Origin: Dudresnaya verticillata
Taxonomy: Eukaryota
Direction of reading: 5' to 3'
DNA: 64,000 nt
NCBI GenBank assembly: GCA_977862235.1
Contig: OZ374564.1
Coordinates: 2,356,001-2,420,000 of the forward strand
The translations under genes were made by a program, and so were the position numbers. The notes beneath the pieces are model-generated. The model was not told the origin of the DNA. It did no database searches and worked only from the letters and a program-made list of their open reading frames with translations. How positions within the stretch are numbered: position 1 is the stretch's first letter; every line of letters starts with the position of its first letter. Of this stretch, positions 2,875 through 62,629 are shown in pieces.

Positions 2875-2883
2875 ACTCAGCTA

Positions 2884-24548: not shown

Positions 24549-25097
24549 AACACGCATTTGAGCGATTTCACAATATGACTTTCGAAACAGACTGGAGTCG
24601 AATAGCTATTTTCTGCTATCGTTGGAAAGGGGAGCGTCCCCTGAGTACAGTGGTTAAATCCGATTGGCTAACGGACCATGCCTTCGAAAGTTATGGCGGT
24701 TTGCGTGAATTTACCCAAAATATTTCCAGATATTCTGAATTTCAATTTCCTTGCGTCGATTTGGCCCGCGCGGCCCACTCCGCGGTCCGCACTGGGCCAA
24801 ATTGGAAATTTCCGGCCCGCAGCATGCCCCTCGCCGCGCGCGCTGCATGCGCGCCGCATCGCCCATCTGGCCCGCCCCGCGCGTGCTCGGCGCCGCCTAC
24901 AGACTACCCCGTCACCAGTTTTTCGGCTTTCTGGTGCAACGGGTGCACTGTGCTTTGCGCGTCTGTGCACAAATCCGCACGCGACCGCATACAGACTGCC
25001 TCGTCACCCGTCCCCCCCGCCCCGCCCCGCGACGCACAACTCCTTGGGCAAAACCTGCTGTCGCGGTTGCCCACCCTCGTGCACACCGTGGATCCCG
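24549..25097 (+). repeat. Left terminal inverted repeat (~549 bp)
   Basis: Begins AACACGCATTTGAGCGATTTCA and ends CACACCGTGGATCCCG; reverse complement of 62084-62629 with scattered substitutions and small indels. Confidence 0.95.
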
Positions 25098-25794
25098 ATT
25101 CTCAACTATCCCCTTTACTGTTTTTGCTACTTACACATCTGAACCAGGGTCCTCCACCGTCCACTCCTCCGGCACTTCCCACCCTAAAAGCGCCATCACC
25201 GCTACAGCCCCTCGCATCACCCCCTCTCCAACCAGGCCAGCCCTCTCAATCATGTCGCGAGCCCACCCCATCATCTGGACCCGGAGCCAGACAGTTGTGT
25301 CCAGCTCCTCTGCAGCCAGCGCGGGAGCCTCGTCCAGCTCAGCGAGCAGGGCGCGGACATCTTCAACCAGCTCCAGCGGGGCTGGGTCGGTCGGTAGCAT
25401 TCTGGCTGTGTATGGCCGACCTACGGCCTCTGTCAGCTTCCTTTTGTTCAGACGCATGTCACTCCATGTTGGTAGCGGCGCTGAAAATGATCCCGATAGA
25501 GATGTCCCTCTCAAGCTTTGTGTTATGAAGTTACGCAATTACTTTCAGGGTTGATGTAGTTGATGTAGTGCACGTGACGGCAACAGTAACCACCTAATTC
25601 AGGACTGCAAGTCCTACAAGACAACCTCGCACATTGACTGAGGTCGATATCCACTCGTTCGCGCGTTAGTTTCGACAATTCAGCATTACTAGGCGAGGCA
25701 TGACTCTCGCATGACGCTGGTTCGAACGATCGCTGCAACCGCTTTCAAGCATCAACTGAATCCTTCCTGAACAAGCCGACGATTTGCAGGAAGC

Positions 25795-26335
25795 ATGACG
25801 GGGACTGTGCACGCGTTGACAGGGTCGGACCCAGAGCAGGTTCGGCTAATGTCAGAGAAGGTCGTCCTCGCTTATTTACAGGACAAAGTTGTTGGTAGCA
25901 TGTCGAAGAAGGAGTCCCACGTGATGTCAAACAACCTGCCGCTGCATCGTGCGTTCTCTGCGTTTTTGTTCGATACCAAGGGACGCATGCTTCTCCAACA
26001 ACGTGCAGCGCAGAAAATCACCTTCTGTCTTTCTGGACGAAAACCGTATGATCCCATGCACTCCACAAGCCTGCTGAGCTCGGTCAGCAGGACAGTGGAG
26101 ATGCGCTTGCAGGGGTCAAGCGTGCTGCCATTCGGAAGCTGTCTCATGCGCTCGGTGTCAAAGAGGGAGAGTTCGGTATGGACGACCTGCACTGCATGAC
26201 TCGCATTCATTACCGTGTTGAAAATGACGGAGGGGTGTGGGGTGAGCATGAGATTGATTACGTGTTCATGGCCGTGAAGGACGTAGCGCTATACTGCTAT
26301 AGCTCCTGAACCAAATGAAGTCCGAGCAGTACGTA
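25795..26335 (+). pseudogene. IDI: Isopentenyl-diphosphate isomerase type 1 (Nudix) fragment
   Basis: LHRAFSAFLFD..GRMLLQQRA..KITF, then a frameshift to FWTKTV*SH (canonical WTNTCCSH), GVKRAAIRKL, TRIHYR, WGEHEIDYVF, PNEV. Confidence 0.92.
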
Positions 26336-27965
26336 TCTTCGTGCTTAGAATTCTTAGAATGCATTGTCTCGGGTAGGTGAAGATAGATGTATGCAGTACG
26401 GGAGCGTTGGGTACTTTGTAGTTGAAAGACAGAGGTGGGGCGAGATGCGATGTAGGTGTGGGGCAGGACGACTTCCAGCAACATGCAGGTCTTGTGGACC
26501 GAACAAGATTACCACCACTGAGGGCTGCCTTTGCCCTGGGCTCAGCTGTCGGCCTCCAGAGCGATTCACACGCTGCCCTCCAGGCTTCACATACATTCAA
26601 CTTACCTACAGCCAAAAAAAGTTGTTTTGGCCAAGCTTGATACATCGGGACCCTCTTGTATATGCATACCGACGCCGAGAAATTGCACTGGCTTGTCAGC
26701 AACGCAAGTGCAACCTAATGAAGGATAGAATCTAGGCTTGCTCTGCACAGCAGGACTACTCGCTTCCACGTTGGTCAACAGCTTTGAACAACGCGTTTGC
26801 TGTCACTAGTATCGTAGCAGTGGTGCTTTCTCCGCGGCGCTACTGGAAATCCGCCTCATTAATAGAGCGCAGATGTGGAAATCATAATTCTTTCGTTACA
26901 AAGTGGACGAAGGTGGGTGGTGGTGAGTGGTTTCGATGATACCAGCAGCATTGGGGGCTACATGCAAAGGGGGAGGGGCCTGATCATACATAATAGAGCC
27001 CCCGCCTGTGATACCGCCCCAAATAGTCGGGTAGTCAGGAAGCAATCATAACAGTATGAAGATATTCATTTGAGCTGCCGTCTCGGCGTATAACAAGCAC
27101 TGGAGCCAGTATTGGGGCCTTTTTTCCCGTCACAGGAAGTCCAAACGGCTGAGAGCTTGGAACGGGGGCGATGTTGGGGTCTGAAAAGGAAATGACTACT
27201 TTTATTGTTGCAGAAGAAGAGTAGTCGAATGCAATGACTAACAACAAACAGCAAGAATGCTCAACAGAAATTATGGAAACGAAGGAAGGACTTGAAGTCG
27301 AGAAAGATGAAGGGTGGGTTGGCGGGAGAACGAAGGAAAGAACTTAGGGGAGACGGAGGGGTTGTCTAAGCTGGACTGTAGTGCTTATATCCCCCCCAGA
27401 ACCTCTAAATTTGGTAACTCCATATAGTTCAGCCCCAAACAGTGAAGTGCCAAATATAGTGCTAAAAGTTGCAAAGACCCGTAGAAATCCCTTTCGGGTA
27501 GATGTTGTATCGGGTTGTTGCTGCTTCAGGACGCTCAGCAGGGCCCGCTATCCCCACTAAGGTCTTTTCACCAGTGTAGACGCATCGAGACACAAACTGA
27601 AAAACTAAGAATCTTTTGCCGCCGGTAACTACCGCAGGTAACTTTTTCCAATCCGTAGCTGTCCAAGCACCGCCACCAAGTATCTCGCTAGAAGCGTTTA
27701 GGGACGGAAGTTCATAGTGCGAGACGATTGGGCTCCAGCATATGCAGTAGGAGTGACATTCTGACTGAATTCATATTCAAATGCAGCACTTGCGGCGCAG
27801 CAAACTGCTCAAATCGCACAGGAGTTATTGTGCGTTTCTTTCGTAGACAACCAATCGCGAATAAGCTCTCGATGTAGCTATATCGTCAGCGCCAAGCCCC
27901 GACCAGCCCCGACCTCAATGATCGCCATTCGCCCATATCAAAGTAGTTCTAATGGTCATAACCTC

Positions 27966-30931: not shown

Positions 30932-31002
30932 TTGCGTCGACCATGCGGGTTGCGATTAACGCGTCCGACCTGCCACCCCCATCCCTTCTGTTTCCCATTC
31001 GC
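30932..31002 (+). repeat. ~71-bp direct repeat, copy 1
   Basis: GTTGCGATTAACGCGTCCGACCTGCCAC..., matches 35738-35808. Confidence 0.8.
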
Positions 31003-32173
31003 ACAGCTTACGACAACTCTTGAAAAGCACCCAACTGCAACACAGACTGTCACAACACCGACAGTAGCACAGAAATGAAACAGAAACAGCCCCTAGTCCC
31101 GCGCTTGTAATAAACGTTAGGCAAGCTGTAGTAGAGAAGTCCGAAATGCACCCCCGGATCACGCAGTCAGCTTTGCTCGCGATGCGAAGACTTCGAGCCT
31201 GTAAGGTACAGCATTTTAGTTATGTATTGTGTAGCACTGCAGTGAACGTGAGTGATGCAAGCGCTCGAGGTCTCCTGGTCTACAAGTCAGAACTCAGGTG
31301 CCCCAGGGTATTGTTGGACAATAATAGAGCTCTCCCATTCGCTGCTGATTCTGAGACTCCCACCCGGAAGTGCGGGTGGTGCAGGGATCCCGAGTCACTC
31401 ATCACTGTGATTCCATTTCAACGGTATGGAACCTGGCACTCAGATGATGCTTTAGCTATAGCTATGTATTACAATACACCGGTAATACTAGTACAAGGTC
31501 CGAATCGTGGTGAACCGTGCACGGTGCACAGGGACAGCGCATAATATCACCAGTCGTTCTGATTCCACTTCACAGGCAGAATACTTGCCACAAATCGGTG
31601 ACCGACTGCCTGCAGCCCACATATGTTCCGAAAGCATACCGGGGGACCAGACAATATTGTAATTAGGTGACGAAGAAACGCCTCCTTTCACTCAAAGGAG
31701 TGGGTCAGATGACTAACGATAGGTAGACCGTTGCTCACTCACTGGTGATTCCGTTTCGCATATGCACACAGAACAGCATAGGAGGTTATCTGGCGAGGTT
31801 TCAGCACGTGACACCACTCCAGCGACCACTGCGTTCTCTTCCCGATATTCTTGTTCCACCGTGCTGCGCTGACAGCCGCCAAAATCCGCTTGACCTCCCA
31901 CCCTTTCTTTCCTCACGATTGTGCGACGCGTACTCAAAAGCGCTATTGACGGCACTGATCCGAGCGAGACGAGGCCCTTATTGCTATCGTGGTACAAAAT
32001 GCCTCGCACAAGAGAACGTCGCACTGGTTTGAGTCAAAGGCCGGTCACTGCCGACGGACATGTACTCACCGTGACGGGAGGGAACGATTCTCCGGCCAAG
32101 ACAATCGGTAAGGCAACGGCGGAGACGGCCGCGGAAGAACCCATTTGGAAACAGGGGCGGAACCGCGCCCGCA

Positions 32174-33055
32174 GTGACCAGCCCTGACACGCAAAGCATG
32201 TCAGCGTCGAAGAAAGTAGTGCTGTTGCTAGACGGAGAGGAGGTGGGTACGGCTGATCCAATGACTCCGGCGTCTCCGGAAGAGGCAGATAGCACAAGTG
32301 CATTCAAAGTTAAGATGCATGGAACGTGGTTAAGAGACGTGCAGCGGAAGAAGGAGACATGGATAGTCATCTATCAAGTCCGTATTCGGAATGGACACGG
32401 GGACAAAAGGTACATGTATAAGTATCCTGGTATAGAGTCTCCACCCACCACTCTATCTGGTCTAAATGTGGGTATTCATGTATGGGACAGGGAGCAAGTC
32501 CGCACTGTGAAGCCGCGACCTACAGGCGGTACTGGAGAAGCGGGCGTGGCGACCGGGGAAGCTTGCCCTCGAATAGTACTGGGACGACCGAGTAGGAGGC
32601 ACACTGTTCGTGCCAGGACGTCAACTAAACGGTCAGGGCGTAGGGGGGCTCGGGGACTTGCTCGTAAGCGGACAGTGACGAAAAAAACACCCGTACCGGT
32701 CAGTCTGATCCCAGCGCTCAGCCACACCAAGAAGGTAATGACCGCACTACTACACCGCCAGCAACACCACGTATTCCGTCTACACCCCGGCCGCAATGCA
32801 GGTGAGCCTTCTACACCCCCTGCTGTTGCAGTTGCTCAGACCGCGTTGGTTTATACCCCGGAGCGTCCCGCCCGTATGTGCCGGCGACCGTACCAATTAG
32901 AGGGAAAAGAAAACACGGAAGCTGGGTTATCGAAACTGGGAAGTAATGACGCGGCTCCAAAACCAGCCGAAGCTGAACGGGAGAAAGGAGATTCCGGGAA
33001 CGGCGCACAAGAAGACAATGCTCCCGTGGACACTACAGCAGAAGGATTTGCGTGA
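32174..33055 (+). pseudogene. N-terminal part of the transposase ORF (possible Tnp1/En/Spm-like accessory domain plus low-complexity linker)
   Basis: Same frame as 33164-34777, separated by two TGA codons. Pattern VGTA..MHG.WL..V.I..YP....TL...G..VW resembles transposon accessory domains. Confidence 0.45.
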
Positions 33056-33163
33056 GGTCGTGATTACGCTTCTGAAGAAGAGCATACTGACGTCGGGACT
33101 GCAGGCGATGGGGAGGATGCTGATTCCGACACGCCGGAATGACACCCCTCCGACGGGGAGGAG

Positions 33164-35360
33164 ATGGCACTAGACGGGCGTGGAGACGGCCAGGCTAGTG
33201 CTAGGACGAGCCGGAAGACGAATTATAGACATGATGCTCGTCCGAAAGGAACCCCATCGGGGCATTTGATGGCTGCGAAGAGGAGAAAGGTAGTGGAGGT
33301 GATGGAGATGCAGGATATCTTAAACATTTTCTGCTGCCAAACAAAACAATGCTTCGGAACCATCGAGTCAGTCTACATCAGGGTTGAGTCACGCAAAATG
33401 ATGGACAAGAATCGCACGGAAAGGAAGCGATACCTCACGGGACTACTGGAACCCAACTCCAACATGTACTTCTTCAGCGGGCGGCCGGTTTGTTACTCAT
33501 TTCTGGACAAGGCTTTCGGTTTCTCTAGATACCTGCAGTCGGCAGTGAAAGGAACGAACAAGAGCCGCGAAAGGAAAGGGAGGGGACTGATAGTTGGTGG
33601 TACTTCTACGGAACAGATGGAGGTGATAACGTCGTTCTTGGAGCGCCTCGCAGAAGTGTCTGGTGATTCGCAACCAGACAAGGCTGAAATCCACCTCCCC
33701 TTCTATGAGAAGCTCGCAGTCTGTAACACGTTTGTGACTGAGCACCGTACTCTGTACCCTAACAGAGCAACACCATCACAGAGCTACTTTTATAGTATCT
33801 GGCTCCGCAGCTGTCCGCAGATTAAGATCAGGAGAACTCACCGGTTTGCAAAATGCTCCGAGTGCGAGGAGATCAAAGATCTTCTTGCAAAAGCGGCAAC
33901 GGATCTAGCGGGAACCGAAGCGCTTCGCGAGCGGCGGGCAAGGCACGTGATAATGGTCATGCAGGAGCGAACAGAATATCGCAAGAAGTGTGAGATGTCT
34001 TCGATGTATCCGAAGAACTACTGTTCACTCATCATCGACGGTGCTGACCAGTCCGCATTTGGACTGCCACACTTCCACATCAAGGTGAAGGACACACGCG
34101 GACATGGAATGAAGGCCAAAGTAGTCGGCGTTTTAGAGCATGGCCAAGTCCCACATCTAAACCTTTTCACGATGACTGCTGAGTTCGAAACAGGCGGAAA
34201 TCATATCATCGAAGCTCTGCATCGCGTATTGATGGCACGCAGAGACAGGATGCCACTGAAGGGTACGTTGTTCCTCCAGGTCGACAACTGTACTAGGGAG
34301 AATAAGAACAGGTTTATGTTCGGCTACTTGGCGTATCTCGTTGCTATGGGTGTATTTCCGGAAGTGCATGCGTCGTTTCTCCCCATCGGTCACACGCATG
34401 CCGATATCGATCAAGTTTTCAGCTGCACTTCGAAGAGATTACGCGTTAGAGACGCCATTATCATGCACGAACTACGGCAATCATGTACTCCTCAACCACG
34501 TGTCACGGAGATGTTGCACATTATTAATTTCTCCGGGGTATGCAAAGAGGCCGGATGCCTCGGGCGTACCGAGCCCATTTCAGAATATCGGTACTTTAGG
34601 TTCAGTGCGGAAGGAGCTAAGAACACAGACGCCGGTACGTTCAAGACTCTCTGCGAAGTGAAGAGGGGCTGCAAAGACTCTTGGAAACCTTTACATACGC
34701 GAGATGGCCAAGGGCATTCTTGTTATTTCCCCCTACCTGCACCGGATTCCACCGACTCCCTGTCGAGCACCGCCTGATGAGCACGAAGTAACCAAGCGTC
34801 TACGATCGGCCGAGAGCAGAATCAACAATCACAGTAAGGTACAGAAGCTGTTGGCACTTCGTGATACAGTTTACGAGGACCGTGAAGACCCATTCCACTG
34901 GGCATTGGCGGATGTGTTTGAGTTGGAAGGGGCTTACAAACCGGATGGGAGCGGCCCTAGCGCACCCTCGGAATCGGGGTCAGACGCTGAGAATGTAGTG
35001 GAACAGGACCTCGTGGAACAGGACCTCACTTACACAAAGAACAGCTTTGTAGCCGTACTAGGCGACGACTGTACCGAAGGATGCCCGTTCTGGCTTGGGC
35101 AAGTGATGAATTGGGAGACGGACGGGGGGGCAAGGTTACCAATTTGCAAGTAGAGTGGTACGACAGAAGGAGTACTCGAGGGAATACTTTCACCGGGCGT
35201 TATCGGAAGGCGCGAATAACCGATGCAAATGGACATGTCAAACCGTGGAGCGATACGGTCCCGGGGAAGTCGGTTTTAGTAGAGTTCGCGCGTTTAACCA
35301 ACTCTGGAATACCCGTCACGGTGCAGCGAAATATCAGGGAAGCCCTAAAGATGCGAAAGA
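33164..35360 (+). pseudogene. Sola-like DDD transposase, frameshifted near 34720 and 35125
   Basis: Cys clusters (CC..QC, CSEC); catalytic-type motifs IIDGADQ, LQVDNCTRENKN, SFLPIGHTHADIDQVFS; C-terminal FVAV...PFWLGQV...LQVEWY domain in the shifted frames. Confidence 0.8.
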
Positions 35361-35737: not shown

Positions 35738-35808
35738 TTGCATCCACCACACGCGTTGTGATTAACGCGTCCGACCTGCCACACTTATCCATTCCGTTTC
35801 CCTTTCGC
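35738..35808 (+). repeat. ~71-bp direct repeat, copy 2
   Basis: GTTGTGATTAACGCGTCCGACCTGCCAC..., matches 30932-31002. Confidence 0.8.
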
Positions 35809-36184
35809 GAACCAAGCTTCGTACCATGCATACTGTACACACCCTGGGTGCTATCACGCCGGATGCACCCACGTGGAAGGATGGCTCTGCCCAATACGCC
35901 AAGAGCTGCCGGCATGGAGTTTCACACGGTCTTTGAGAACCGCGCTCGCGCCATTGTTGTTGCTAGTCCGCAGGCACAGAATCCGACACTAATGTTCGCA
36001 GGAGAGGAGGAGGGCTACATGACTTGTGAGCCTGTCCGCGTGGGCGATACTCAAGACTCTCTCACGACGAGCTCGCACACCCTGCATATACTCACAGGAG
36101 CGGATCAAGGCGAGTTTTATCGAGCATCGAAACGCGCTTGAGAAGCTTGATGCTATTATTGGTAATGCCATGAATCACTGGTAG

Positions 36185-36607
36185 GCTTCTTCACAGCCGA
36201 GTGTGGGCGGCGCAAGAAAGACATGAAATGCGCCACCAAGAAGTGCTGGAACAAGAACTATGTTTTCAACACGAAAGCGTCGATGGCCAAATGATTCCCG
36301 AAGGCAGATTGCGAAGATTCCGACGCCAATGAGCTGTGTGCTTCCGGAAATTGCTGGGCTGGCAAGTGCACAGACGGGTCTTATGACTCACTCACGGGGC
36401 TGTTTCACAGCAGATTGCGGGCGGTGCAAGAAGGACACGGAATGTGCCACTAAGAAGTGCGGGAGCAAGAAATGCGTGTTCAACACGAAGAAGTCGATGG
36501 AGGAGTGCTTTCTAAGGCCGGATTGCGAAGACTGCGACGCTAATGAGCACTGTGCTTCCGGCAAGTGCTGGACCGGCAAGTGCAGAAGAGTGATCCAGAA
36601 GGTGTAG
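36185..36607 (+). pseudogene. Cys-rich tandem-repeat protein fragment (two ~214-bp units)
   Basis: FTA(E/D)CGRxKKDxxCATKKC..K..VFNTKxSM...DCEDxDANExCASGxCWxGKC occurs twice; the first unit has a stop and a frameshift. Confidence 0.7.
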
Positions 36608-38520: not shown

Positions 38521-38926
38521 AATGCAGACGCAGTCTGGGTGGATGTGCTCGCAGTTGACAGCACGAAGGATAGGGATGCGGGCTGCGAAGGCTACTGCGG
38601 TGGCGCATACGTCAGCAAACACATCACAGTGCGCGACGGGGGCACGTTCGCGAGCGCTTCACAGTGCGGAGCATTTCCGCAGACGCGGGCTGGGTGAATG
38701 GGCTCGCAGTTGACAGCAGGATGGCAGGGACCGGTGGAGGTACTGTTCCGCGACACTGGTGTAGAGGAAGAGGGTTTGAAAAGAGAGGAGGTGGTACCAC
38801 CTGATGGTGGGAGAGGGCGGTGACCACGAGGAGGGTGCATGCGGTGAGGTTGCGGTGCGTGGAGACATGCTCCGCTGCAGGCGGGTGACCAGCAGCCGGA
38901 TAGATAATTCAGTGAGACTTCCGCCG

Positions 38927-40673: not shown

Positions 40674-41002
40674 TAAACCGCTGGTAGAGACACTGCCCAA
40701 CTGCAAATGACCAAGGCGCTCATCACCACCACTCCCGGAACCTCAGACTTAAGTGATTCGGGGCGGCGCATTTGTGAGGGCGACATGTCTGACGCCTTTA
40801 TCATATCAAGGGGTGGACTCTGGCGCATATCTCTACCCGGACAGCCACAGCTGGTGTCAAGTTAAGGATGCCTGCGCTGCAAGACATCAAGAACCAATGC
40901 GCAGGATATACTCTATCACCTCATAGGCGGCAATAAGCGCACCCTCAACCGAGCCACTATGCTCCGACGCGACTTAGGTGCCCGCAAACGCGAGACGGAG
41001 TG

Positions 41003-41914: not shown

Positions 41915-41916
41915 AC

Positions 41917-41934
41917 TGGTCCCCCGACCTAGAA
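41917..41934 (+). other. Primer-binding site (possibly tRNA-Trp type)
   Basis: TGGTCCCCCGACCTAGAA, 2 nt after the LTR. Confidence 0.75.
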
Positions 41935-42041
41935 GTGTGCTACGTTTCAACGAGTTACTCCGTCGTGCGACGTCCGACCTTCCGTCTCTAGACGTCCGTC
42001 GCTAATCGTCCACGACGTTCAAGCAACTCTACGACTGCATT

Positions 42042-49328: not shown

Positions 49329-50530
49329 CCCTAGTCAGGATGGAATCTGGAAGCGAAAACACACGCCACATACGGGTTGACGCGGACGTGCACTCGTTAC
49401 GGACGACGGGGGCTGTACTCAACCGGATCAAGGACGATTGGGTTGGCGACACGCGAATAGGCAACCCTCTTCGGAGGGGGTCCGTAAGGACAGAACGGCT
49501 GACAGTAGTGAGAAGGCGTGGAGGGCGCACGCACCACACGAAATCGGGCAACAAACAAAATGGAAAATTTTAATGTGAAAACAATAACGCGAAGGCACCA
49601 GCCAGACGGCGCCCAACAAACGAGAACCTGACAAGTGTGTGCCCCAGCACTACGAGCGCCCACGAGGCAACCAAGCACGGACGCGACAGACGGTCTCCGA
49701 CGTTCTCGCCCAGGCGCGCCACCCACGGCCAAGTCCGAAACTCGTCATCCTTACGGGCGGCGCACGCAACCGCCTCGAGGGTGACGCCCGCGAACGTCAA
49801 CGACGTGTCTCAAGTCGAAAAAGGGGTCGCCCTCAAACATGAGAGAAGAAACAGTCGTCGAAGACGGAGTTGGGCTACGTTTCGTGCACGATGCGCTAAT
49901 CGCGAAAATGGCTCCGCCGCTGGGCGCGGCAGCCGCACCCAGGAGTCGCAGGAAACGCCTCCAACGCGCGGCGCATCGCCAACCTAACCGTCCCCGACGC
50001 TAACCCAACATGCCCTGCGTCAAGGACGAAAAGCCAACGGACAAACGGCTCCCCAACTACATATTCACTTAACAAGCGGAATCGCGATTTGAACAAAACG
50101 ACTAAGTCGGCATAAGAACATGGGCCCTCCCAAAAGGGCTTACGCTACTGTAGCGGCATCAAGAAAAGGGAAAAAACGCCATCAAGGCGGCACCGCCCCA
50201 ATCTTTTACGCAAACGCTACTACAGCGGACAGACAACAACAACGTCTATACGAACGGGACCCGTCGGCTATCTAATATTCGTTATCGCAGCTCTCTACAT
50301 CAAGCGGACACATAAGCAACTACGTTTGACAACGGCCGAGTTTATTCGGGCTTCACAAGCGAGGGTAACCCCCGTGCCCGTATGACCTTCACCTACGACC
50401 TACCTCGTGAGACGCGACACTAACCATCTATGACGTATGAATCCCTCGCTCGCTGCCCCGCTGTGGGGCAAGCGGAGCGACACCACACGCACTCTCGCGC
50501 CCACGAACCGTTCTTAACGATCCAACAGAG

Positions 50531-52834
50531 CTACGGCTTTTCCGTCGCAGACGGCCCAGATGGTGCATCATCCCCGACGCCATTGGCGGATTCTCTTAAC
50601 GCCTCTTCGTAGAGGTCGTCTTCCATCACCAACGGTGCGCTCGCAGCAGGGGCAGGGACGGACCGCAAGGGACCCGCCACAACCACTGCTGTCGAAGTCG
50701 CGACATCCGCCGCTGGCGACGCACCTGGCTCACAACCCGCCTTAGGCGACGACTGTTCGTCAACCGCCATAGGCGCAGCGTTAGAGTCATTATCCGCCTT
50801 AGGCGCTACACCAGGAAGCTCACTCGCCTCTGGCAGCGGAGCATCCTCAACCGCCTTGGGCGAAGTCTACGGCCCCGGCACCTCCGGTGACGGGGCCGCA
50901 TTAACCGCCAAAGGCGTCGAACGATCAACATCCGTCACTGACGAAGAGGCCACTGGAGCCTGCGGAACCGCCGTAGGCGCTGCCACCGCACCCGTCTTTG
51001 GCGGACTTTTGTTAACAACGTCAGTGGACGCAATGGCGGACGAACCCGCACAACCCGCCTTAGGCGACAAAGGCTTTTCGCCACTCCGTCATTAGACGCC
51101 GTACCTTCGTCGTTAGACGGCACAGTCGCAACGACGGTCGACGCCGGAACCGCAGCAACACTAGGCTGCAGAGCAGCCAGCAGCGAGTGCCCGAGGGGCG
51201 TCGTGGATGACCCACCCGACCCGTCAGTGACGACACCAGTGGCTCGCAAGAATGCGAGCACCGTGCGGCGCTGCTCCTCAGTCCATTCGGGCACTGCAGG
51301 AGGGCAATTCGCACCGTCAGCGACGTTGGAAAAGCCGCCTTGAGGCGTAACTGCAGACGCATAACTCGCCACGGGTGCGGCCATGATGGCATCACCATCA
51401 CCGTCATTGACGGGCACCGAGAGATCCAACGGCAAACCGACGGCACGCCAACAGGCACCACAGCCGACGATCCTACTGCCGCTGGCGAACTCGTCGCGGG
51501 AGCTGTCGCCCCCGCAGTAAGCTCAACCGCCATAGGCGTAATGACGTCCGTCCCAGACGGGTTAACCGGTCCGCTGTTAGCGTGGAACGCATCCTCCTCC
51601 GCCATCAAGGCGCTCAAGTGGGGTGGGAAATCCCCCGCAAAGTCGCAATTCTTGCGCAACCCACGTGGGTGATTCGCTGGCGTGAAGCGTTCCGTACGAC
51701 GATGACTCTCAGCGATGTTCTCCGTCGTAAGACGTTTGGTCCACGGGCTGTACCACACCCAATCACTACAGGCGGAATGATTTCTACTCATCGCGTGACG
51801 CGGACGGTTTGCCTTACGGCGCCTGTTTCCCGGCGTCACAGCAGCCGGGTCGTCCCAGTTGACGTTATCCGCCACATGGCGTAGCTCCCAGAACTCTTGG
51901 CAGTTCCTGGCACCGCCCAGCACTTCAGCCAAGTCAAGCCCGCCAAGGAGGCTGACTACGCGCGGCGGCACATAATAGAGCCGGAAGATGTCATACACCT
52001 CCCACATCCATGCGTAAGTTACGTTGATGACCCACTCGGTGAAAAATACGATCCAACATCGGGACTACGGATCCGTCCGCAACTCGGAGCCAATATACGT
52101 GACACACGGAGGCAATTCCGCCGCAAAGCCCTCGCAGGCCTCAAAGTCCCGCCACAACGGCGGGACGCGAATGAAGCAATGCGGCAACTTTCCCGCTCAA
52201 TGCGATCGACTTGCGTATCTTGATACGGCACAAAAACGCCTTTGCGGCGGCGCGTTTCGCACTCCCAACGGACGCAGCGCTCCCAATAGAAGGTGCCCGT
52301 CCTATGCAAGTATCGGAAATCCACTTTCAAGCGTACACCAAGGAGGTTAGCCTCCTGAAGCACCCGCGGCTCAGCCGAAACAGCCAAATGGCTTAATGAC
52401 AACGTCCCAAGACGGTCCCCATACCCAACCTCGCCATTTGTGCGGTACTGCCCTGCATCAAATTCAAAGACGGTGGGCGTCAATACCGACCCCGGATAGC
52501 GGGTAACCCGCCGATACACGTCAACGACAAAACGCGCATGCGCATATACACGCGTCTGACCGGCGGCAATACGCAGCCAACCCCTCGGAATGGCGCACCG
52601 ATGGCGCCACTCGTTCGTCCACACGACGGCCAGGGGCAACTCCCCTGGCAAAAATCCGCTCACAGCGTAATGGGTGATGAGGTCCTCGTGTCGCAGGGCC
52701 TCCTGGTCGAACCAAGGGGCCCGCGAGAATAATCGCGCATCGTTGCGGGGAGTCCTCCCGACAAAGTCGAATGGTGACGGATACACCGGCGCCGCCGAAG
52801 GCGCAGCCACTTGTAGGCCATTGAACTGTGCCAT
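50531..52834 (-). pseudogene. Antisense accessory ORF of the chromovirus, function unknown
   Basis: Consecutive minus-strand ORFs 52019-52834, 51060-52007, 50935-51435 and 50531-50770 between pol and the PPT; Trp/Arg-rich globular part followed by an Ala/Pro/Ser/Val-rich tail. Confidence 0.65.
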
Positions 52835-53295
52835 TACGTCTGAGACGTTGAGTAATCACACGGCACTGGCGAAACACACATGATACGTCAACGACGGTCT
52901 TGGACTCCGAAGTCGAGTCAACTACGCCAAAGGCGGAAGCAAACAAAACACACGTCAACGACGCTGGACCGAACAACGCCGAAGGCGGACCTCAAAGAAA
53001 CGCCCTAGGCGATAAGCGCACGCACGCGTGCACAGATACGACGTCAACGACGGGGTTTCACGCACGCCACTGGCGAAGTTAGTCAACGACACGTCTTCGA
53101 CGGGAATTGTTCCTACGCCAAGGGCGGGTGGGCAACTGAACGTGCGTTTTTGACGGGGCTCAACCAACGCCAAGGGTGGGCAAATGCAGACGCGAAGGCG
53201 CGGGTGACCGACACGATCGGCACTGGAAGAGACGCGGACGAGGAATGCAGGCAGGCTGAAACAGGTTGACGTGATCGCGTTTTCGGAGGGGGTCG

Positions 53296-54208
53296 TGTAG
53301 TGCCAGGGGGGGTCCCCCGTTTTCGCTTTCAAGCGGGTTGATATGCAGCGTCTACCGACGGACGACCGCCAACGGCGCGCTCAACCCGCCCGCGGCGCAA
53401 ACACGTCACCGACGCATGCCGCTGGCCACTTGGGCCAGAACGGCTCGCTTGGCGTGCAGACCGCAAGCCTGAATCAGGGACACTGTACGGCGCCACGCGT
53501 ACGCGCATGGCGCAGTGGCGGGAACGTTCGCTGTAAGCGTGGCCCGAATCCGGATCCAATCGGGATCCCACATCGGGATCAGACATCGGGATTAAGAGGT
53601 GTAAGGCACGCGCCTGTAAGCCTGGCGCATCCGCATGACTGGCCCGAATCCGGACTGGATCGGGATTGGTGCGGATCGAGATCGCACGCGCCATGGGGCG
53701 CATGCGGCTGTAAGGAAGTAATCCACGTGTAGGTGTAAGGACTCGGGCGGGGAAGCTACGCGTGATCTGTCAGGAGCGCGGCTGCATGACGGACGGATCT
53801 GTCAGACGCGCCTCGGGACAACACGTGTCCCGAGTTCCCGCGTGGCGCGTACACACGCGTCGCCGTCGCTAGGTAATTCTATACTTAGTTGATCCGTCTC
53901 AGACGTCACAGTAAACCCTGGCAAGCCGGCTTTGGTCCAGACTTCCCCGTTCAGCACGCGCGTACCCTACCGCTGCCTACGGCTAAGCGTCTACCTCCCA
54001 TGCTTCCACGTCTCTACCCATCTTTGACGTGTTCCCTTTTTGTTCTCTTTTGTTCTTCCTTTCCGCCTCGGGCGTTTACAGTCCGCCCAAGGCGAGTCAA
54101 CTGCTCTACCACGAGTCGCCCAAGGCGAGGCTACTCACTGCCACGGCGTCGCTACCCACCGAGCCCCGAACTGCTCGGCGGTGTTCCGTCTACGACGTTT
54201 GCACTACA
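53296..54208 (+). repeat. 3' LTR (913 bp), preceded by PPT GGAGGGGG (53285-53292)
   Basis: Direct repeat of 41003-41914. Confidence 0.97.
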
Positions 54209-54663
54209 GAGCGCTCTAAGCTCCTTCCTGAGATCGCAGACATGCGTGCGTGTCTGAAACGGGTCAGGCTCTTCCTTTTGCGCTTGTGCAATATGTGCCA
54301 AACTCTCTAACGTGAGATACGTCAGGCGACTAAAATCGAGCTTGAAGTTAGCAAGTCTCTTGCAAGCCTTAAAACCGAAAAGCACTTCGAGCTGGTCGAT
54401 GACCTGATTCCGCACGGCCGAATCTCTAAGTCTGCGGAACTCGAGTGCATGCGCGAAACGCGAGCAGCGAAGCGAAGGACTTTCGGGGCGAGTTATTCAC
54501 GGAAGAGGGCAAAGACGAAGAGTTCGCAATGGCCGTGTCCCATTACAAATGTGTGCAATGCATTCCACTGCTGGTCTACAGGCTTCCCGCAGTGGCAACC
54601 CTTGATGGTAAGTGCTAGGACCGTTCTCATCTTAAATACAGCCCGATGGCAGTCTACTCAGTT

Positions 54664-55354
54664 CTAGACGGAATCGGAAGAAGGGTCTTCTACATTACGG
54701 TCTTGACGTCCTCGGACGACACGAACGGAACTATGCAGTTCTTGAATCCGGATCCTGACGTTGCGAAGTGTTCTCAACGTCCTTCTCCCGAAGTCATGCA
54801 CAAGGTGTCTTACGAAATCAAATGCCCTTTGTACTTCGGTTTCTAGCTCCCGCACAGTGTTGCGAAGATGGTAGATTTCAGCACGTAGAAGTGCCAACTC
54901 TCGCTACACTTCGGCCATTGTTGAATTGACAGGCAGCGGCATTGTTTTTGTACGAGGTCTGAAAAAGTCACATGGAAGCTTGAAACTGATTCTCAATGTC
55001 GAATTCCAGGTCGGGCTCATCTTCTTCGTTGCGTTGTATCCCCAACACCCTTTCGATTGACCGCAGCCGTCTTCTAGCACTTCGGGCAATATGAACGGCG
55101 TTTATCACTACTCTGGACAATCGGTCCATAACAGCGGCAACCACCGCCCTCATTCGTCGTCGAGCTCTTTCCACTGCCGTCCTTAATCCTTCCACCTCGC
55201 CTCGAAGAGCACGCAATTCGGACAGTAGGCGAGCAGTGTCGACTTCTGAACCTCCGCTGCCTTGGTTGCGACGAGCGTGCATGGATGCCATAATTCCTTC
55301 CAGCTGGAAATGTGCAGTGGACCGTCCACCGCCCTCGACTGGCAGTATGTACAT
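54664..55354 (-). other. Short coiled-coil-like ORF remnants
   Basis: LLSELRALRGEVEGLRTAVE and LLRAEIYHLRNTVRELETEV show heptad patterns; no family recognised. Confidence 0.3.
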
Positions 55355-55594
55355 CCGGTATAGCCCAAAAATAGATGGAGCAGACTTTCATGGCTCTCTA
55401 TCACAACCCTACATCATGTGAAGATCCCATGCGAAGAATGCGTTTAAGTCTCGCAGCAGTGCTGCCGGTTCCTCCGGACCCTTAAAAGTGTACATATACG
55501 GCCTCTCCGCCAACTCATCGCAAAATGTGAAGGAAAATACAGCCATGAGATGCTCTTCCTCCTTGCCGAGCTCCCGCAACCCGTGCTGGTGCAT

Positions 55595-56605
55595 TTATGT
55601 CTTCAGTCCGTGGGCGTCGTTACCCAGTTGCAGTACTGCCTTCCCAACCTTATCTGGACCACACAGCAGCCAAACTGCGTCACCACCTTTGCGTTTCGGT
55701 CGATCGCATGACAGCGGTTTCTCCCTAGGTTTTCCTGTACGTTTCCCAGACTGTTGCTTACCTGCGGATATCATTAGAGTCTGTGATTCCCTTTCAGACT
55801 GATCAGTGCGTACCCGCTTTATGTCCGGCTGTTTGTCTATCTGTTTTGCCGAACGCTTCTGTGCTTGGACCCCTGCGTCTTGAGACGACCCGTTCTGCTT
55901 CTCCTCGGCCATGGGGTGCAGGCGTGCACGAGCCAGTCTGTATGTTTCCGGATTTCTTTCGACGAGGCAACACTCCCTGTCTGTCCGAACGCAGGCAATG
56001 CCTGTGGTCATTGTCCCCGCGTGAGAGTCTAGGACCGAGCCGCCTTCAGGGCAGCAGATTGTGATGATCTCAGTAAGTGCATCAGGATTTTTCTCCTCCG
56101 TCAGAACTGGTGCCCTGCTAGTCCCTGGCTTCATGAGCTTATCTCTGGGTACGGGAACAGAGGTCATCACAACAAACTCTCGTCGCTCCTTACACGAGAT
56201 GAGGTGGTATGGGCTGGAGAGGGCTGGAGAGAAAGAGTTCTTGGATGTACCCTTGCGCCTTCCGAAGGCTGCTGCCTCAGCCCCATTCTGCAGTCCCTTC
56301 TTGCGACTTATCTGGACAGTAGTTGCGTCTTTGCAGAGTAAGAAAGGGCACTGCATACTATCGAAATTGTTGTCGGTAAGTGCCTTTTGAAACTGCGGGA
56401 ATTTCAAGAAGCTGCAGAACAGAAACACCCAACCACCCTCCTTCACAACACGTCCACAAAAGTCGCAAAGGCGCTTGATGTCTTCTTCACTGAAATGGTT
56501 TGCGTATGCAGTTCCAGCATTTGACATTCCCTTCGGGGTACAATACGGAGGGTCAGCAAGCACGAGGTCAAATAGAGGACTGCATTCATTCCTGAGATTG
56601 GTCAT
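55595..56605 (-). CDS. DNA amino-methyltransferase (N6-A/N4-C), beta-class motif order; C-terminal part of a larger broken ORF
   Basis: FDLVLADPPY (motif IV), RVVKEGGWVFLF, then EEKNPDAL..I...CPEGGSVLDSHAGTMTTGIAC (motifs X/I) and LVERN..Y..A..RL. Confidence 0.85.
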   Translation of the reverse strand: MTNLRNECSPLFDLVLADPPYCTPKGMSNAGTAYANHFSEEDIKRLCDFCGRVVKEGGWVFLFCSFLKFPQFQKALTDNNFDSMQCPFLLCKDATTVQISRKKGLQNGAEAAAFGRRKGTSKNSFSPALSSPYHLISCKERREFVVMTSVPVPRDKLMKPGTSRAPVLTEEKNPDALTEIITICCPEGGSVLDSHAGTMTTGIACVRTDRECCLVERNPETYRLARARLHPMAEEKQNGSSQDAGVQAQKRSAKQIDKQPDIKRVRTDQSERESQTLMISAGKQQSGKRTGKPREKPLSCDRPKRKGGDAVWLLCGPDKVGKAVLQLGNDAHGLKT

Positions 56606-56833
56606 ATTCCTCCCACTTCATCTGATATGTTCGTATCCTGCATTTGGAAGACGGGTCCTTCTACTCCACATCATAACCGGTATCCAGTCTCTCCGACTTG
56701 CGTGTTGAAGAAACAGAACGACTACCCGGTCCAATACACTCGTTCTGGATGTCATTGTTACCAGCTAATGCGCCTGTGTCGTTGTCGTCTGTAGGATCCA
56801 GGCCCGATTGCGTATTCTGCCTCTGTGTGTCAG

Positions 56834-58415
56834 TTACAGTCTCCTTAACGGCTTCCGACTTCTTTTGGCCACCAAGGACCCCCTTCGAGTCTTTTGCTTT
56901 CCCCCTTGAGGTTTTCCATCAACTTCAGAACTCGTCTTATCAATCTCGGAAGCTGAAACTATTGGCTTGTCACTTTCTCCTATATCTGGAGATGTATCTT
57001 TCCCAGAATCAGTTTCTGCTTGGAACTGGTGCTTGAATTTCTTTTCCTTAACGGGAGCTTGTTGCGGGCATTCCCTTCGATAAGCGGCTATCAAGGGCTT
57101 GAGCACATCGTGGTCATTTCCGAAGTTTGCACGCACCTCGTGGTCCAGCTTCGTGGAACGAAGGAGGTTCTGGCGAATGACGTTCATACCTTCAGGGCAA
57201 CTCTGGCTCTCGATAAGGCGTTCGAATTTCCGTGCTTCCCTCATTGCTGCTTACGCCCTTCCAAATTGTTCCAGAGTCTGAAAGCTGGTGACTGACCGGA
57301 AACTCTGAAGTCTATGTACTTCGCGTAGTCGGTACAAAGTTGAAATCTGTATTTCTACGCCATCCTCCAGTTTGTTCCCATTCATGAAGTCGATTGCAGA
57401 CTTCAGTGATGAAATGTGGATGAACTTTCTGTAGACTCGGCAGTCAACCGTTCTCATTGCTCCTTCCTTGTCGAGTGTTGTACCTTGTCTCCTGTCATCT
57501 TTGCAGCTAGATCCGGTCTCTCCTCATTTGCAATTTGTCCAATTGTGTGAATTACTCTCGTATCCAACCGCATAACTGTCTGAGCAGTCTGTTTAATGGT
57601 GTTGTTCCGATATAACTTCGAACCGTCATACGCCTCCGCAAGTTTTGGGGCATTTGGTTATTTCCCAGTCTTGGCCTGCAACCTCTCCGCCTCCTCCCGC
57701 AGACCGCGGACCAGGTCAAAAATTTAGTCTCGATAAAGTACCCCTGGTCGTGTTTCTCATTCTGATGTCGTGCCAGCTGCCGGAGCTTATGGACGTTGAG
57801 CCCACCCTTCAAAATCGTTACCGGCCATGCGAAAGACGGCCAGACTGTTGGCAACTCCTCCATTAACTCCAAAATATCGCAATGTCTATGCAAGCCGTCA
57901 ACAATGTCGTACCATTTAGAGCGATTTTTTGCCTTCTCCAAAGACTCCTCCTCCGTGTACTCCTTCCCTTCCCCTTTCATATTCTTGAAACCCGCAACGA
58001 CGTGACCCCACAGAGACCCTGTCATTTTGATGACAATTGGAGCGTCAGACCCGGCGACGTACCCAATGGTACCTTCCCCACCTTTCTTCTCTGATGAGTG
58101 TAGATGAATGCGAGCTTTGAGGCGTTCCACTCCGGAGCGCACCATGGGTCTTATTGCCGTTAGCGGGAAGCACGCCCTGGGGTCAATTCTCATATTCACG
58201 AAACCCTCCATCACGTCAGAAAACAATGCCCTCCCCATACTTGCAGAAGAGAAATTTTGGTCCGCTTCAGACTGTGTAACAGCACCCTTTCCAGAACTTG
58301 TCTTGCCCATCCAGCCAAAAGTATAATTCAGCACTTTTGAACAAACGGTCGCCGTACGTCTTTCCAACTGGTTGCCGTAGGTATTTCCAACTGGTTGCGT
58401 TAAGCTGATGAGCAC
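56834..58415 (-). pseudogene. ParB/Srx-like domain plus helical region upstream of the MTase (probably the same ancestral gene)
   Basis: IRP......ERLKARI...WYDIVDGLHR..I.EL ParB-type motif. Collinear ORFs 57552-58415, 57251-57457 and 56834-57244 lead into the MTase through stops and frameshifts. Confidence 0.65.
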
Positions 58416-59559
58416 GGGATAAGCGTTGCGGTTTCCACGAATAGCACTTCGGGTTTACAAAAGTATGTCCGTAGTCAGGTCAGTGGTCACGGCATCGAAA
58501 GACGGGATATATCATGCCGGTTTCCAGCTTTAACCTGGAAACGAAGTTTGTCCGCATGACTAACAGCCTCACGTACGGGTTTTAACTTTGCCGGAAAGAT
58601 AGTTAGAGCCCTGTACCATTTGTGGTGCCCTGATACATTCCGCGAGATTACATGAAGCTACAAATCACTGCAGGGTTCTATTGGTCGTCGGTAAATATAT
58701 CGACGTATTGTGCGGTAGGCGTGTTCACAGTAAGTTCGTACTTTCTAAGAAAATATTTGGAAGTCAGTTCTAACCGTCCAACCGTACAGTGATTCCGATT
58801 CACAGCTGCCCTACTAGGGTATCTAAACGATGCTCAAGGCGGGTAAGAAATGGGCATACGAAATAGTTCCACAACGTGGAGGGGAAATTGGAAGTACGTG
58901 TGCCTGCGTAGGCACACTCCCTTGGACTGGGGGTGATGTGGACGATTCGCAAACGTACAGTCATTCCCATTGTACCAAAATGAACTTGTTCCTCAGACAC
59001 GATAGAAATAACCTCGGGTTTTCGAATTGGCAAGAGATTACTGTCCGCCCTCACAAAGTCGTTTAACATTGACATTTTCTGAAACCTGCGCCTCCACCCT
59101 GTAGATATGGTCATCATAAGACCACTGCAGCACCGAAACAAACTGATGATCACGATCTGCCATCGGATGCCACGACAAACGTAAGTATGCGTGTTACCCA
59201 ATGATACAAGTAATATCAAGGTCAGCGAAATGATTAATACCATACGTGAGACCATAATAGAGCCTGTACCAGTGTGTCCAAGTGATCCCTGTAAATACGT
59301 TCTAGAATTCTGCACAGATCAACATGCCCGCGTTCTAGCAATACAGAAAAGCCCTATTCTGCGGAGGTTCAGACAGTCTGATCTGCGGTTCCACCTAATA
59401 TCTGGGCGGTGTATGTGAACTATCCAGCAAATTGAGGCTGCATTTTTGCAGGGTCCTCATACTGCTGCCGGTATAAGTGCTTCGGTACAGTAAGGTCATT
59501 CTGATTACCGGAATTTGAACATGTCCAATCGAAGATATATCCCTATTTGTATATAGAGA

Positions 59560-60270
59560 ATGCCTAAGCCACGTACACAGCAAAAACCATTAGCTACAAG
59601 TGTTACTTTCCGTTTAAAAGCGCGCAATCGTAGCATTTCACAGACCTCCTCGACGGTACTGAGGAACATAAATACGGCTGTACACACAGAGAAGAGGATT
59701 TCTTGCCGAATTGTAGTCATTCCTATTACTGTCGACATGCTCATTGACCTCCCGGTGTTGCCGGACGACATACAGTCCGGTTTCTGCGCATTTCATGACC
59801 TCATGCGCTGTGAATTGAGGCGTCGATTGGCAGAGCAGCAGCGTCGCCTTAATGGTGACTCTTTGCAATTTTCGGAACGCATAATGCGATCCTTGGAGGT
59901 GAAGGATGAAGAAGGAGTCATGGAACAGAACCGTGCTCGGGAGTTTGAGGTCGTTATGGGTCAATACGATCATGAACAGAACATGCTCACAGTGGTATAC
60001 CATGGGGGTATGAAGAAGCTCGATTACGTATCGGGGGATGCTTTCTCCGGATCCGAAGCTCATGAAATCGATACCGTCTTGGTCGAGGCTATTCGCCTGG
60101 CAAGCGAGCCAGTACGGGAGATGGAGCGAATGTGCCGCCTTCTCCTGACTTGGCATTTTGCCAAAACTAACGCAGAAAGGATTGTGGAGGTAAAGGAGGC
60201 AAGGGTGGCCCATGCGGAGCATGACGTGCGCGTCATGTATAGGAAAGCTTCGTCGTGCAAGTCTGTTTAA
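59560..60270 (+). CDS. Hypothetical protein (cargo or element-encoded)
   Basis: 236-aa ATG ORF with protein-like composition; a 287-aa antisense ORF overlaps it, so the strand is uncertain. Confidence 0.3.
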   Translation: MPKPRTQQKPLATSVTFRLKARNRSISQTSSTVLRNINTAVHTEKRISCRIVVIPITVDMLIDLPVLPDDIQSGFCAFHDLMRCELRRRLAEQQRRLNGDSLQFSERIMRSLEVKDEEGVMEQNRAREFEVVMGQYDHEQNMLTVVYHGGMKKLDYVSGDAFSGSEAHEIDTVLVEAIRLASEPVREMERMCRLLLTWHFAKTNAERIVEVKEARVAHAEHDVRVMYRKASSCKSV

Positions 60271-60589
60271 TATCGACCAAGGATGAAGTCGACCGATCAA
60301 TCTGATTGCGTAGCAAGGAGTAGTACTTGGAGACGCGCGTCGGTTTTGACTACGTGTGCTTATGGCCGTACCTTTCGTCGTCGGTAATGTTAGAAAAGAA
60401 AAGACGTAGACGGTTGTATTCTCGACGAGCGACGTAATACGAATTACGCTCCAGGCGGCTTTTGAATTTGCCATGTCCCCGCGAGAGTACTTCCAGCACA
60501 ATAGCTGTGTCGGGATTTGACATCAGCTTCTTTTCCTCTCTCTGCTGAATATCAACTAGGAAGGCCTTGAAACCCCCAACTCGTTCCGT

Positions 60590-61315
60590 TTATCCGTAGT
60601 TCTTTGCATTTGCCTGTTCATGAACGCGTTCCATAAATGTAGGAAAAGCAGACCGGTCGAATAGTCTGATTCCCAGTGCCTCAAGGCCGGTGAACCGCTT
60701 GCCTTCGGAGATGCAGTTGTCAATTAATACGAGTAAGTTGGACTCACCAATGCGGCGGACCATATCTTTGTCAGTTTCCTCTGGTCTGCACAGGGCATTG
60801 AAATCCAGACACGACAGATACTGGCTCTTCCCAAGCAGTTCATCATTGACCTCTCGTGCAGGCTCCCCAGGTACTAAGTCAGACATCTTCCCCTTACGTA
60901 CGAGGGTGTGCGTTCGGACTACCACAGGGGTTAGTACATCAGCGGGGGAATTCTGCATCAGGAACTTGGATCGCTATTGTTCCGCTGGGCTATATACCGT
61001 GTACTTTTTGTACCTAAATACAAGATGGGATTCATCATGCCTGCCACGTCGAATCTTCAGACACGCGAAGTTTAACCCGCTATCCTCTCGAAACCGGGAC
61101 AAGCATATTGATTCCTTCTTCGCCACGTTTTCGGAGCAGTTGATACTGCACATGTTGATATCGACGCTTGTTTCAATACATGTGCGAGCCTGAGCCCTGT
61201 ATTGTGGAAGGGGAGTATGCGCCGGCAAAATAGAGTTATCAATAGTGGTATCAGAACGACCTATCTGGGTTCTCGTCTTCATTTCAGCAACCTCGGCTGA
61301 TGGTATCCCTCCCAA
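60590..61315 (-). pseudogene. Hypothetical protein with an in-frame stop
   Basis: ORFs 60974-61315 and 60590-60958 are in frame, 15 nt apart. Confidence 0.3.
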
Positions 61316-62083
61316 CTGTACTCAGACCCGTTCAGGCATTACGAAACGAGCTGGGCACAATTATGCTTTAAGACCCACTGAGACGCATGGCACAGGCAGT
61401 AAACAACCGAGGTGCATTGGCAATTGCCGCATGTACTATATCCTTTTCATGAAGAGGCTATCTACGCCTTGCAGGCAGCACCATACCGGCACCAGGAACC
61501 CGCAATGGCAGCTGACGAGTCAATGTGAAGTGGGTCAACAAATGTCGCCAACAGCGGAAACATGTCCCTTTCATGAGCACGTCTTGTTTATTTAACAGCG
61601 TAGATTGTCAGTGCTTCAGTTATTGAGTACACTGAATTTTATTAACCCTGACGCCTCTGGGGAGCAGGGTCGTAGGAGTTTGGACGCTATTCTCAAACGC
61701 AATGGTGGTGGACTGGAAGCGATCCCCCTCAAGGTTGAATGAGTTTACCAAACGCCGCATTTACTTTCCCCCAATGGAGCTTGCAAAGTTGCCTCAATGG
61801 ATGAGCCTACGGACATGGTTGGAACGGGGAACCTTTGTAGTGTCGACAACGCAATCGGTCGCGGGCGTGGTTACCCGGGAAACAGCTGCAGGCTTATACA
61901 TTTTATTATCATTACCTAACGAACTACGTAGTGTTGGATACATGTCATCGAATGGCCATACTTGTGTCTGCGAGTTGTCATGACATCGGCATGTGGCGTC
62001 CCATCGTACAGAAATACGGGCGGGCGGGTCGTGCAACGCGGTCGGGGAGCGACGGGCAGGGCGCGCTGACGAGGTGACGGCAG

Positions 62084-62629
62084 CGGGATCCACGGTGTGC
62101 ACGAGGGTGGGCAACCGCGACAGCAGGTTTTGCCCAAGGAGTTGTGCCTCGCGGGGCGGGGCGGGGGGCGGGTGACGAGGCAGTCTGTATGCGGTCGCGT
62201 GCGGATTTTTGCACAGACGCGCAAAGCACAGTGCACCCGTTGCACCAGAAAGCCGAAAAACTGGTGACGGGGTAGTCTGTAGGCGGCGTCGAGCACGCGC
62301 GGGGCGGGCCAGATGGGCGATGCGGCGCGCATCAGCGCGCGCGGCGAGGGGCATGCTGCGGGCCGGCAATTTCCAATTTGGCCCAGAGCGGACCGCGGAG
62401 TGGGCCGGGCGGGCCAAATCGACGCAAGGAAATTGAAATTCGGAATACCTGGAAATATTTTGGGTAAATTCACGCAAACCGCCATAACTTTGGAAGGAAT
62501 GGTCCGTTAGCCAATCGGATTTCACCACCGTACTCAGGGGACGCTCCCCTTTCCAACGCTATCAGAAAATAGCTATTCGACTCCAGTCTGTTTCGAAAGT
62601 CATATTTTGAAATCGCTCAAATGCGTGTT
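62084..62629 (-). repeat. Right terminal inverted repeat (~546 bp)
   Basis: Ends TGAAATCGCTCAAATGCGTGTT and is followed by TSD GAGG. Confidence 0.95.

Follow-up and report, generated by a model that had tools for sequence, protein, structure and literature searches.

The question raised by this locus is whether 38 kb of DNA lying between two long terminal inverted repeats (TIRs) in the red alga Dudresnaya verticillata is a single mobile element and, if so, of which kind. The stretch analysed, referred to as the window, comprises 64,000 nucleotides (OZ374564.1, positions 2,356,001 to 2,420,000 of the forward strand), with coordinates counted from 1. The interval is very probably a now-defective giant cut-and-paste transposon that was inserted as one unit of about 25 kb in the integrase gene of a Gypsy retrotransposon; its likely group is Sola1. 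The ends of the element, the interrupted host gene and a Gypsy element nested within are as follows, where LTR stands for long terminal repeat.

24545..24548, no strand: left target-site duplication (TSD), GAGG
24549..25097, plus strand: left TIR, 549 bp, starts with AACAC
41003..54208, plus strand: nested Gypsy LTR element with chromodomain, 13,206 bp, outside the Sola1 core
62084..62629, minus strand: right TIR, 546 bp, terminates with GTGTT
62630..62633, no strand: right TSD, GAGG
62634..63998, minus strand: interrupted host Gypsy pol, RNase H to the N-terminal part of the integrase, resuming at 24548-24357

The two TIRs are identical at 531 of 546 aligned bases with 3 gap columns, and their complementarity ends exactly at the flanking GAGG on both outer sides. 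Once the element and one GAGG are taken out, the Gypsy integrase on the minus strand is rejoined codon for codon (HWIYT*GPPRYVLSDNG), and the rejoined reading is colinear with the integrase of the related nested Gypsy (HWVFVYGPPKKLLSDNG). When TSD lengths of 0 to 8 were tried, a match with the frame kept was obtained only for 1 and 4, and the colinear reading comes from 4. The chromodomain of the host Gypsy is located at 23471-23307, beyond the left junction. The whole element measures 38,081 bp, which becomes 24,870 bp on subtraction of the nested LTR element and its 5-bp TSD. An earlier, sequence-only reading of the window had proposed TIRs of about 550 bp placed 38 kb apart between GAGG flanks, an in-frame rejoining of the integrase on excision with one GAGG, indicative of a single-unit insertion, and a size of about 25 kb; the TIR alignment, the reconstructed empty site and the corrected length bear out these three claims.

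The nested Gypsy has LTRs of about 913 bp that are 97.8% identical and a TSD of GAGTG/GAGCG. Substitutions between the TIRs comprise 4 transitions and 11 transversions, as against 13 and 4 in the nested Gypsy LTRs (Fisher p 0.012). The TIRs may therefore be imperfect by design, and the use of their divergence as an insertion clock was rejected because of this difference in pattern. An LTR-like stretch at 14685-15228, in the same orientation and with 71-73% identity to the nested Gypsy LTRs, probably marks another related element to the left of the host Gypsy. Towards the 3' end of the nested Gypsy, long antisense open reading frames (ORFs) at 51060-52855 on the minus strand have no Pfam match. 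A scan of the Rfam database returned 0 matches.

The gene expected to have moved the element has been identified near its middle.

33161..35347, plus strand: Sola1-type (DUF7869) DDD transposase, D293 at 34037, D375 at 34283, GHTHxDxD from 34388

The product matches the Pfam family DUF7869 (E 1.7e-42), a DDE/integrase family of RNase H-type fold, and the gene is frameshifted twice, near 34709 and 35128. Its motifs DNCTRENKN and FLPIGHT, with a D-H spacing of 36, correspond to DncagqNkn and flepgHs, also with a spacing of 36, in the Sola1 profile consensus given in the part of the PMC5751038 supplement consulted, the comparison being made by eye. The 4-bp TSD and the AACAC…GTGTT ends agree with the 4-bp TSD and the AAC…GTT termini of Sola1-1_Ec32. 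In the parts of the published tables and profiles covered here, other groups show differing features. The termini and TIR of Sola2-1_Ec32 (GGCGG, 26 bp) do not fit; the Sola3 end motif fsEaQnGK is replaced by FLPIGHT; the 2-bp TSD and CAC termini of EnSpm/Plavaka and the 8-bp TSD of KDZ, as listed for Ec32, differ from a TSD of 4 bp and AAC ends. The Sola-like DDD transposase recognised earlier is thus supported, and its motifs point to Sola1, to which the transposon likely belongs. DUF7869 very likely represents the Sola1 transposase core, and our literature search, with Repbase and subscription journals outside its reach, found no paper naming this family. A Foldseek search with the transposase gave no match at E ≤0.001.

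A second gene lies on the opposite strand.

55412..58232, minus strand: one broken gene with ParB-like region, DPPY N6/N4 DNA methyltransferase (MTase) and C-terminal shared domain

The relative P0138 (922 aa) aligns across 58232-55412 with 43% identity over 882 residues, spanning both the ParB-like and the MTase ORFs, which are therefore pieces of one gene; the ParB-like/DPPY MTase claimed from the sequence is thereby confirmed and joined into a single reading. The gene carries 4 frameshifts and 4 stops, and its true start probably lies up to about 200 bp further upstream. The MTase part matches Pfam N6_N4_Mtase (E 3.9e-11) and retains the DPPY and the S-adenosylmethionine (SAM) binding motif. 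No ParB match was obtained for the window gene in the Pfam scan; the ParB-like half is recognised from a DGxHR motif and from the Atlas model of P0138, which has a TM score of 0.51 to ParB_N clusters at a model pTM of only 0.34. Residues 10-420 of P0138 also gave an Atlas feature match (score 0.92) to DUF3723, a fungal family associated with Starships that may itself be ParB-like; no paper joining the two terms of this lead was found.

A domain of about 95 residues is common to the C-terminus of the MTase, the N-termini of some Sola1 transposases and the start of an ORF preceding the transposase.

32198..33055, plus strand: ORF with the shared domain in its first ~100 codons (32198-32515)

When only three transposase N-termini were used for a profile, the C-terminus of the MTase was retrieved from 260 proteins with E 3e-14; a mixed domain profile found 121 representatives. 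Among the 39 matches of at least 300 aa, the domain is placed at a transposase N-terminus in 11 and at an MTase C-terminus in 19 (11 with the ParB half), the remaining 9 belonging to neither; Pfam assigns DUF7869 to 6 and N6_N4_Mtase to 16 of these long proteins. On inspection by eye, a DGxHR motif of ParB-like type is seen in four of the nine, and one of the four has a 2-oxoglutarate (2OG) oxygenase-like tail. In P0351, P0357, P0285 and P0369 the shared domain is N-terminal on ParB-like proteins, and the tail borne by P0351 recalls PAG3 of Bostrychia. The AlphaFold model of the domain is mostly beta (pLDDT 91.9); Pfam yielded nothing below E 0.02, and no sequence in the PDB matched. In a FastTree tree of 74 transposase cores, all nine domain-bearing transposases form a separate clade, and the clade of the window transposase is without the domain. 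The domain of the ORF at 32198 matches MTase-type copies best, and this ORF is probably a gene separate from the transposase. Its candidature as the transposase N-terminus was rejected as unproven, two TGA stops lying between the two although they are in frame. No published description of the shared domain on Sola1 elements was found, and the parts of PMC12477816 covered here do not mention it.

Homologous transposases were found at 14 loci, comprising 4 short metagenomic loci, 9 genomic and 1 viral, of which three (L009, L011 and L014) were long enough for a scan of the ends. L009 holds an element of 13.7 kb (1843-15592) with 23-bp TIRs, AACAC ends and TSD TTAG, and L011 one of 10.9 kb (3144-14050) with 34-bp TIRs, AACCA ends and TSD ATAA; no ends were found in L014. 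Such ends arose in 0 of 100 Markov controls for each of the two, with a TIR length threshold fixed after the matches had been seen; at a looser threshold L011 yields an additional 14-nt pair that looks like chance. Since both elements combine AAC…GTT ends with 4-bp TSDs, this type of transposase appears to be tied to such ends. Their DUF7869 genes are split into exon-like pieces, and both records look eukaryotic although titled as bacterial metagenome-assembled genomes; a search of the two genomes found these two transposase genes and no others. Each also has a ParB-like exon opposite in strand to the transposase (L009 5231-5662, L011 5521-5973; 35% mutual identity). The resemblance of these exons to ParB-type accessory proteins is suggestive (hhalign 77%, E 1.9e-5, with shallow profiles). 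The L009 exon against P0138 (BLAST E 0.17, hidden Markov model E 0.34) and both exons against ParB-MTases (hhalign 2.8%, E 0.016) are not significant, and the Pfam scan of the two loci gave no MTase match. L009 also shows an MTase motif-I-like exon at 3383-3658 and a tandem array of about 385 bp at ~12.5-14.8 kb. Viral scans with P0138, a TIR 20-mer and the shared domain gave no matches.

The element also harbours pieces that look like passengers, together with a pair of direct repeats.

25795..26350 (end approximate), plus strand: type-1 isopentenyl-diphosphate isomerase (IDI) gene, broken, carried as cargo
30932..31002, plus strand: first copy of a 71-bp direct repeat, 83% identical to the second, followed by an ATG at 31075
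35738..35808, plus strand: second copy of the 71-bp direct repeat, followed by an ATG at 35826
36184..36584, plus strand: Cys-rich tandem duplicate, broken small gene, period 214 bp, 79%
37306..38528, minus strand: ETF-ubiquinone oxidoreductase (ETF-QO) piece, 5'-truncated, cargo, frameshift near 38422
39930..41002 (start approximate), plus strand: broken TIR-domain-like gene, 5' part, interrupted by the nested Gypsy
54214..54667, plus strand: 3' continuation of the TIR-domain-like gene beyond the nested Gypsy

The IDI gene matches TIGR02150 in two frames (E 1.4e-14 and 2.2e-7) and the sequence of the human IDI1 structure (E 3.9e-15). The ETF-QO piece corresponds to residues 157-563 of a 563-aa relative with 81% identity, the first 156 residues missing, and its start coincides with one edge of a 46-bp direct repeat. 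Its best match overall has 82% identity; the best named matches are from Gracilariales (Agarophyton chilense 73%, Gracilaria domingensis 72%), and named land plants reach 59-61%. Provided that the piece comes from the host, these matches make a florideophyte the likely source. The TIR-domain match is weak, with E 0.001 and 0.012 below the Pfam cut-off and a partial NCBIfam match of 2.3e-7, and no family above threshold was found for the Cys-rich duplicate. Of the pieces listed earlier, IDI, ETF-QO and the Cys-repeat are confirmed, the TIR domain being weakly matched. These pieces and the family-less ORFs look like passengers, putatively captured. The 71-bp repeats, each shortly upstream of the ATG of a family-less ORF, together bracket the transposase region and are possibly an element-specific promoter or 5' motif.

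On the cut-and-paste route proposed from the DDE chemistry and the 4-bp TSD, an intact transposase would have attached to the TIRs, cut the element out and reinserted it through breaks staggered by 4 nt. As the transposase is broken, this copy would be mobile only in trans, unless its frameshifts are assembly errors. In line with a proposal made in the parts of PMC12477816 and of a Bostrychia preprint covered here, the ParB-MTase could bind the element in an accessory capacity and mark it with N6-methyladenine or N4-methylcytosine, a role to which we incline by a small degree. The mark would most likely keep the element active or shielded. The host pieces might have been acquired in gap repair after excision, as in Pack-MULEs.

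Several points weigh against this account. A single copy of the window element was seen, and none of the 14 transposase loci matches its MTase or other ORFs. The Sola1 assignment was made from motifs judged by eye rather than from a scored profile or a Repbase tree, and the Sola2 profile comparison covered nodes 1-6 and 186-211 of 218, the catalytic part lying outside. The exact DPPY is kept by only three of ten full-length ParB-MTase relatives, and the function conserved among them may thus be something other than methylation; with 2.8 breaks per kb as against 0.9 per kb in the transposase, the MTase may have died before the last jump. Capture from the host is putative, being read from the cargo pieces themselves.

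It may also be asked whether the TIRs belong to a non-autonomous element in which the transposase and the MTase are unrelated passengers or remnants of nested elements. Nested insertion does occur here (Gypsy 41003-54208), the 71-bp repeats bracket the transposase region, and ParB and MTase accessory genes are described in the part of the Bostrychia preprint covered as moving between transposable element (TE) families. We consider this improbable: in a scan that recovered the true ends, neither the transposase nor the MTase was found enclosed by a smaller inner TIR and TSD pair; Sola1-1_Ec32 and the L009 and L011 elements, these last with homologous transposases, have matching ends and TSDs; and a domain also fused to Sola1 transposases is common to the C-terminus of the MTase and the ORF that precedes the transposase. 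It is scarcely credible that what looks like one large insertion is a pair of separate short TIR elements or an assembly chimera; the many frameshifts could be long-read errors, but the same 4-bp duplication at both outer ends and the codon-for-codon rejoining of the integrase are unexpected from a misjoin or from two insertions.

The insertion of a single giant Sola1 element is accordingly preferred, and within it the role of the ParB-MTase admits another possibility, for which we see a lesser but real chance. The protein could partner the transposase as a DNA binder or scaffold, for instance by drawing the distant ends together, and not act as a methylase. Seven of the ten relatives lack the exact DPPY, the ~95-aa domain is present on both types of protein, and L009 and L011 keep the ParB-like exon opposite the transposase without a Pfam MTase match. 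In favour of a methylase, the window copy and three relatives retain both DPPY and the SAM-binding motif, and 16 of the 39 long domain-bearing proteins match N6_N4_Mtase. Only tentatively do we suggest that both roles are joined: giant Sola1 elements would carry an ancient two-part machine, in which the transposase and a ParB-based enzyme (MTase or 2OG oxygenase) dock through the ~95-aa domain on both; ParB would bridge the 10-25 kb from one end to the other, and the DNA of the element itself would be marked by the enzyme. Such a machine would extend from brown and red algae to the intron-bearing L009 and L011 elements of other eukaryotes, the red-algal copy shuttling pieces of housekeeping genes.

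The window element provides a second sharply bounded giant Sola1 with a ParB-methyltransferase, from a different algal lineage, and the pairing is therefore suggested to be a stable design rather than a one-off. This bears on the idea that transposons use prokaryote-type methylases to mark themselves, and on the way in which the ends of elements above 20 kb are brought together, and the shared domain serves as a handle for asking whether transposase and accessory enzyme form a complex.

The remaining features of the element are small reading frames.

25131..25538, minus strand: small ORF, 135 aa stop to stop, no Pfam match
31068..31544, plus strand: ORF of 158 aa, no Pfam or NCBIfam match
54968..55387, minus strand: small ORF, probably coiled coil, sub-threshold Pfam match only
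59557..60270, plus strand: ORF of 237 aa, no Pfam match
60350..61321, minus strand: reading frame with two stops, no Pfam match

The ORF at 54968-55387 and one just downstream (~54910-54660) are similar in their helical, probably coiled-coil character. Outside the element, an intact-looking ORF of 343 aa at 10968-11999 on the plus strand has a signal-peptide-like start and no Pfam match, and is possibly a host secreted protein. A 31-bp tandem array of 3.8 copies (2911-3035), a 40-bp hairpin (4390-4473) and a 29-bp array (22908-22985) are also located outside the element.

Among known systems, Pack-MULEs have a Mutator transposase and an 8-11-bp TSD, are usually a few kb long and are not known to carry a methyltransferase, and Starships have a tyrosine-recombinase captain as first gene. 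The window element has neither the transposase nor the TSD of Pack-MULEs, and among the ORFs scanned Pfam detected no tyrosine-recombinase captain, the element having a DDE transposase instead. Teratorn, in the part of its description covered, combines piggyBac with a herpesvirus; neither these features nor a Starship recombinase were found in the window element, which resembles both systems as a large cargo-bearing eukaryotic mobile element, its cargo being broken here. The analogy drawn earlier with Starships and Teratorn is therefore functional only. As to Pack-MULEs, a group treated in the part of PMC6431247 covered, the window element likewise has truncated and broken host-gene fragments (IDI and ETF-QO) between long TIRs and would be mobilised in trans; PMC12477816 also compares giant non-autonomous algal families to Pack-MULEs.

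Large algal elements with related genes have been reported before. PMC6431247 describes En/Spm elements of 16-20 kb in Chondrus and PMC4738411 MTases fused to ParB-HTH (helix-turn-helix) in chlorophytes, again from the parts covered. The Bostrychia preprint, as far as its portions covered here go, presents red-algal Plavaka/EnSpm elements of 17-19 kb with N6-adenine methylase (PF01555) and ParB-like genes, and its accessory genes move among TE superfamilies. Those elements have an EnSpm transposase, PAG2 combining MTase with SET and PAG3 combining ParB with 2OG oxygenase, whereas ParB and MTase are fused in the window element and no SET was found. The main text of that preprint nowhere contains the word 'Sola', and its Supplemental Table 6, a list of further PAG-carrying elements, may already include red-algal Sola1.

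The closest likeness is with Sola1-1_Ec32 of Ectocarpus sp. 7, judged by its description in the covered parts of PMC12477816 and not by sequence. It measures 21,549 bp, with a 282-bp imperfect TIR, AACCG-CGGTT termini, a 4-bp TSD and a 1104-aa gene for ParB and N4/N6-MTase opposite the transposase. Both elements are giant (24.9 and 21.5 kb), with long imperfect TIRs (549 and 282 bp), AAC…GTT termini, a 4-bp TSD and a Sola1 transposase with an opposite-strand ParB-MTase (~940+ and 1104 aa); above 10 kb and with this gene pair, the window element at 24,870 bp falls within the same class. Nested TEs and pseudogenised transposases are also reported there for giant families of the Ectocarpus genome. 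They differ in host and cargo, a brown alga with an "Ectocarpus specific gene" in one and a red alga with IDI and ETF-QO pieces in the other. The earlier statements that the element is not recognised as described and that Sola elements are normally only a few kb must hence be withdrawn. A literature search with 'Sola1' and 'ParB' returned the Ectocarpus paper alone, and no giant Sola1 of a red alga was found in the literature within reach, Repbase and subscription journals lying beyond it. We found no printed precedent for a red-algal Sola1 host, for housekeeping-gene cargo or for the ~95-aa domain on transposases and ParB enzymes. As Sola1-1_Ec32 has the same design, the window element extends a kind of transposon known since its publication in 2025 and does not found a new one.

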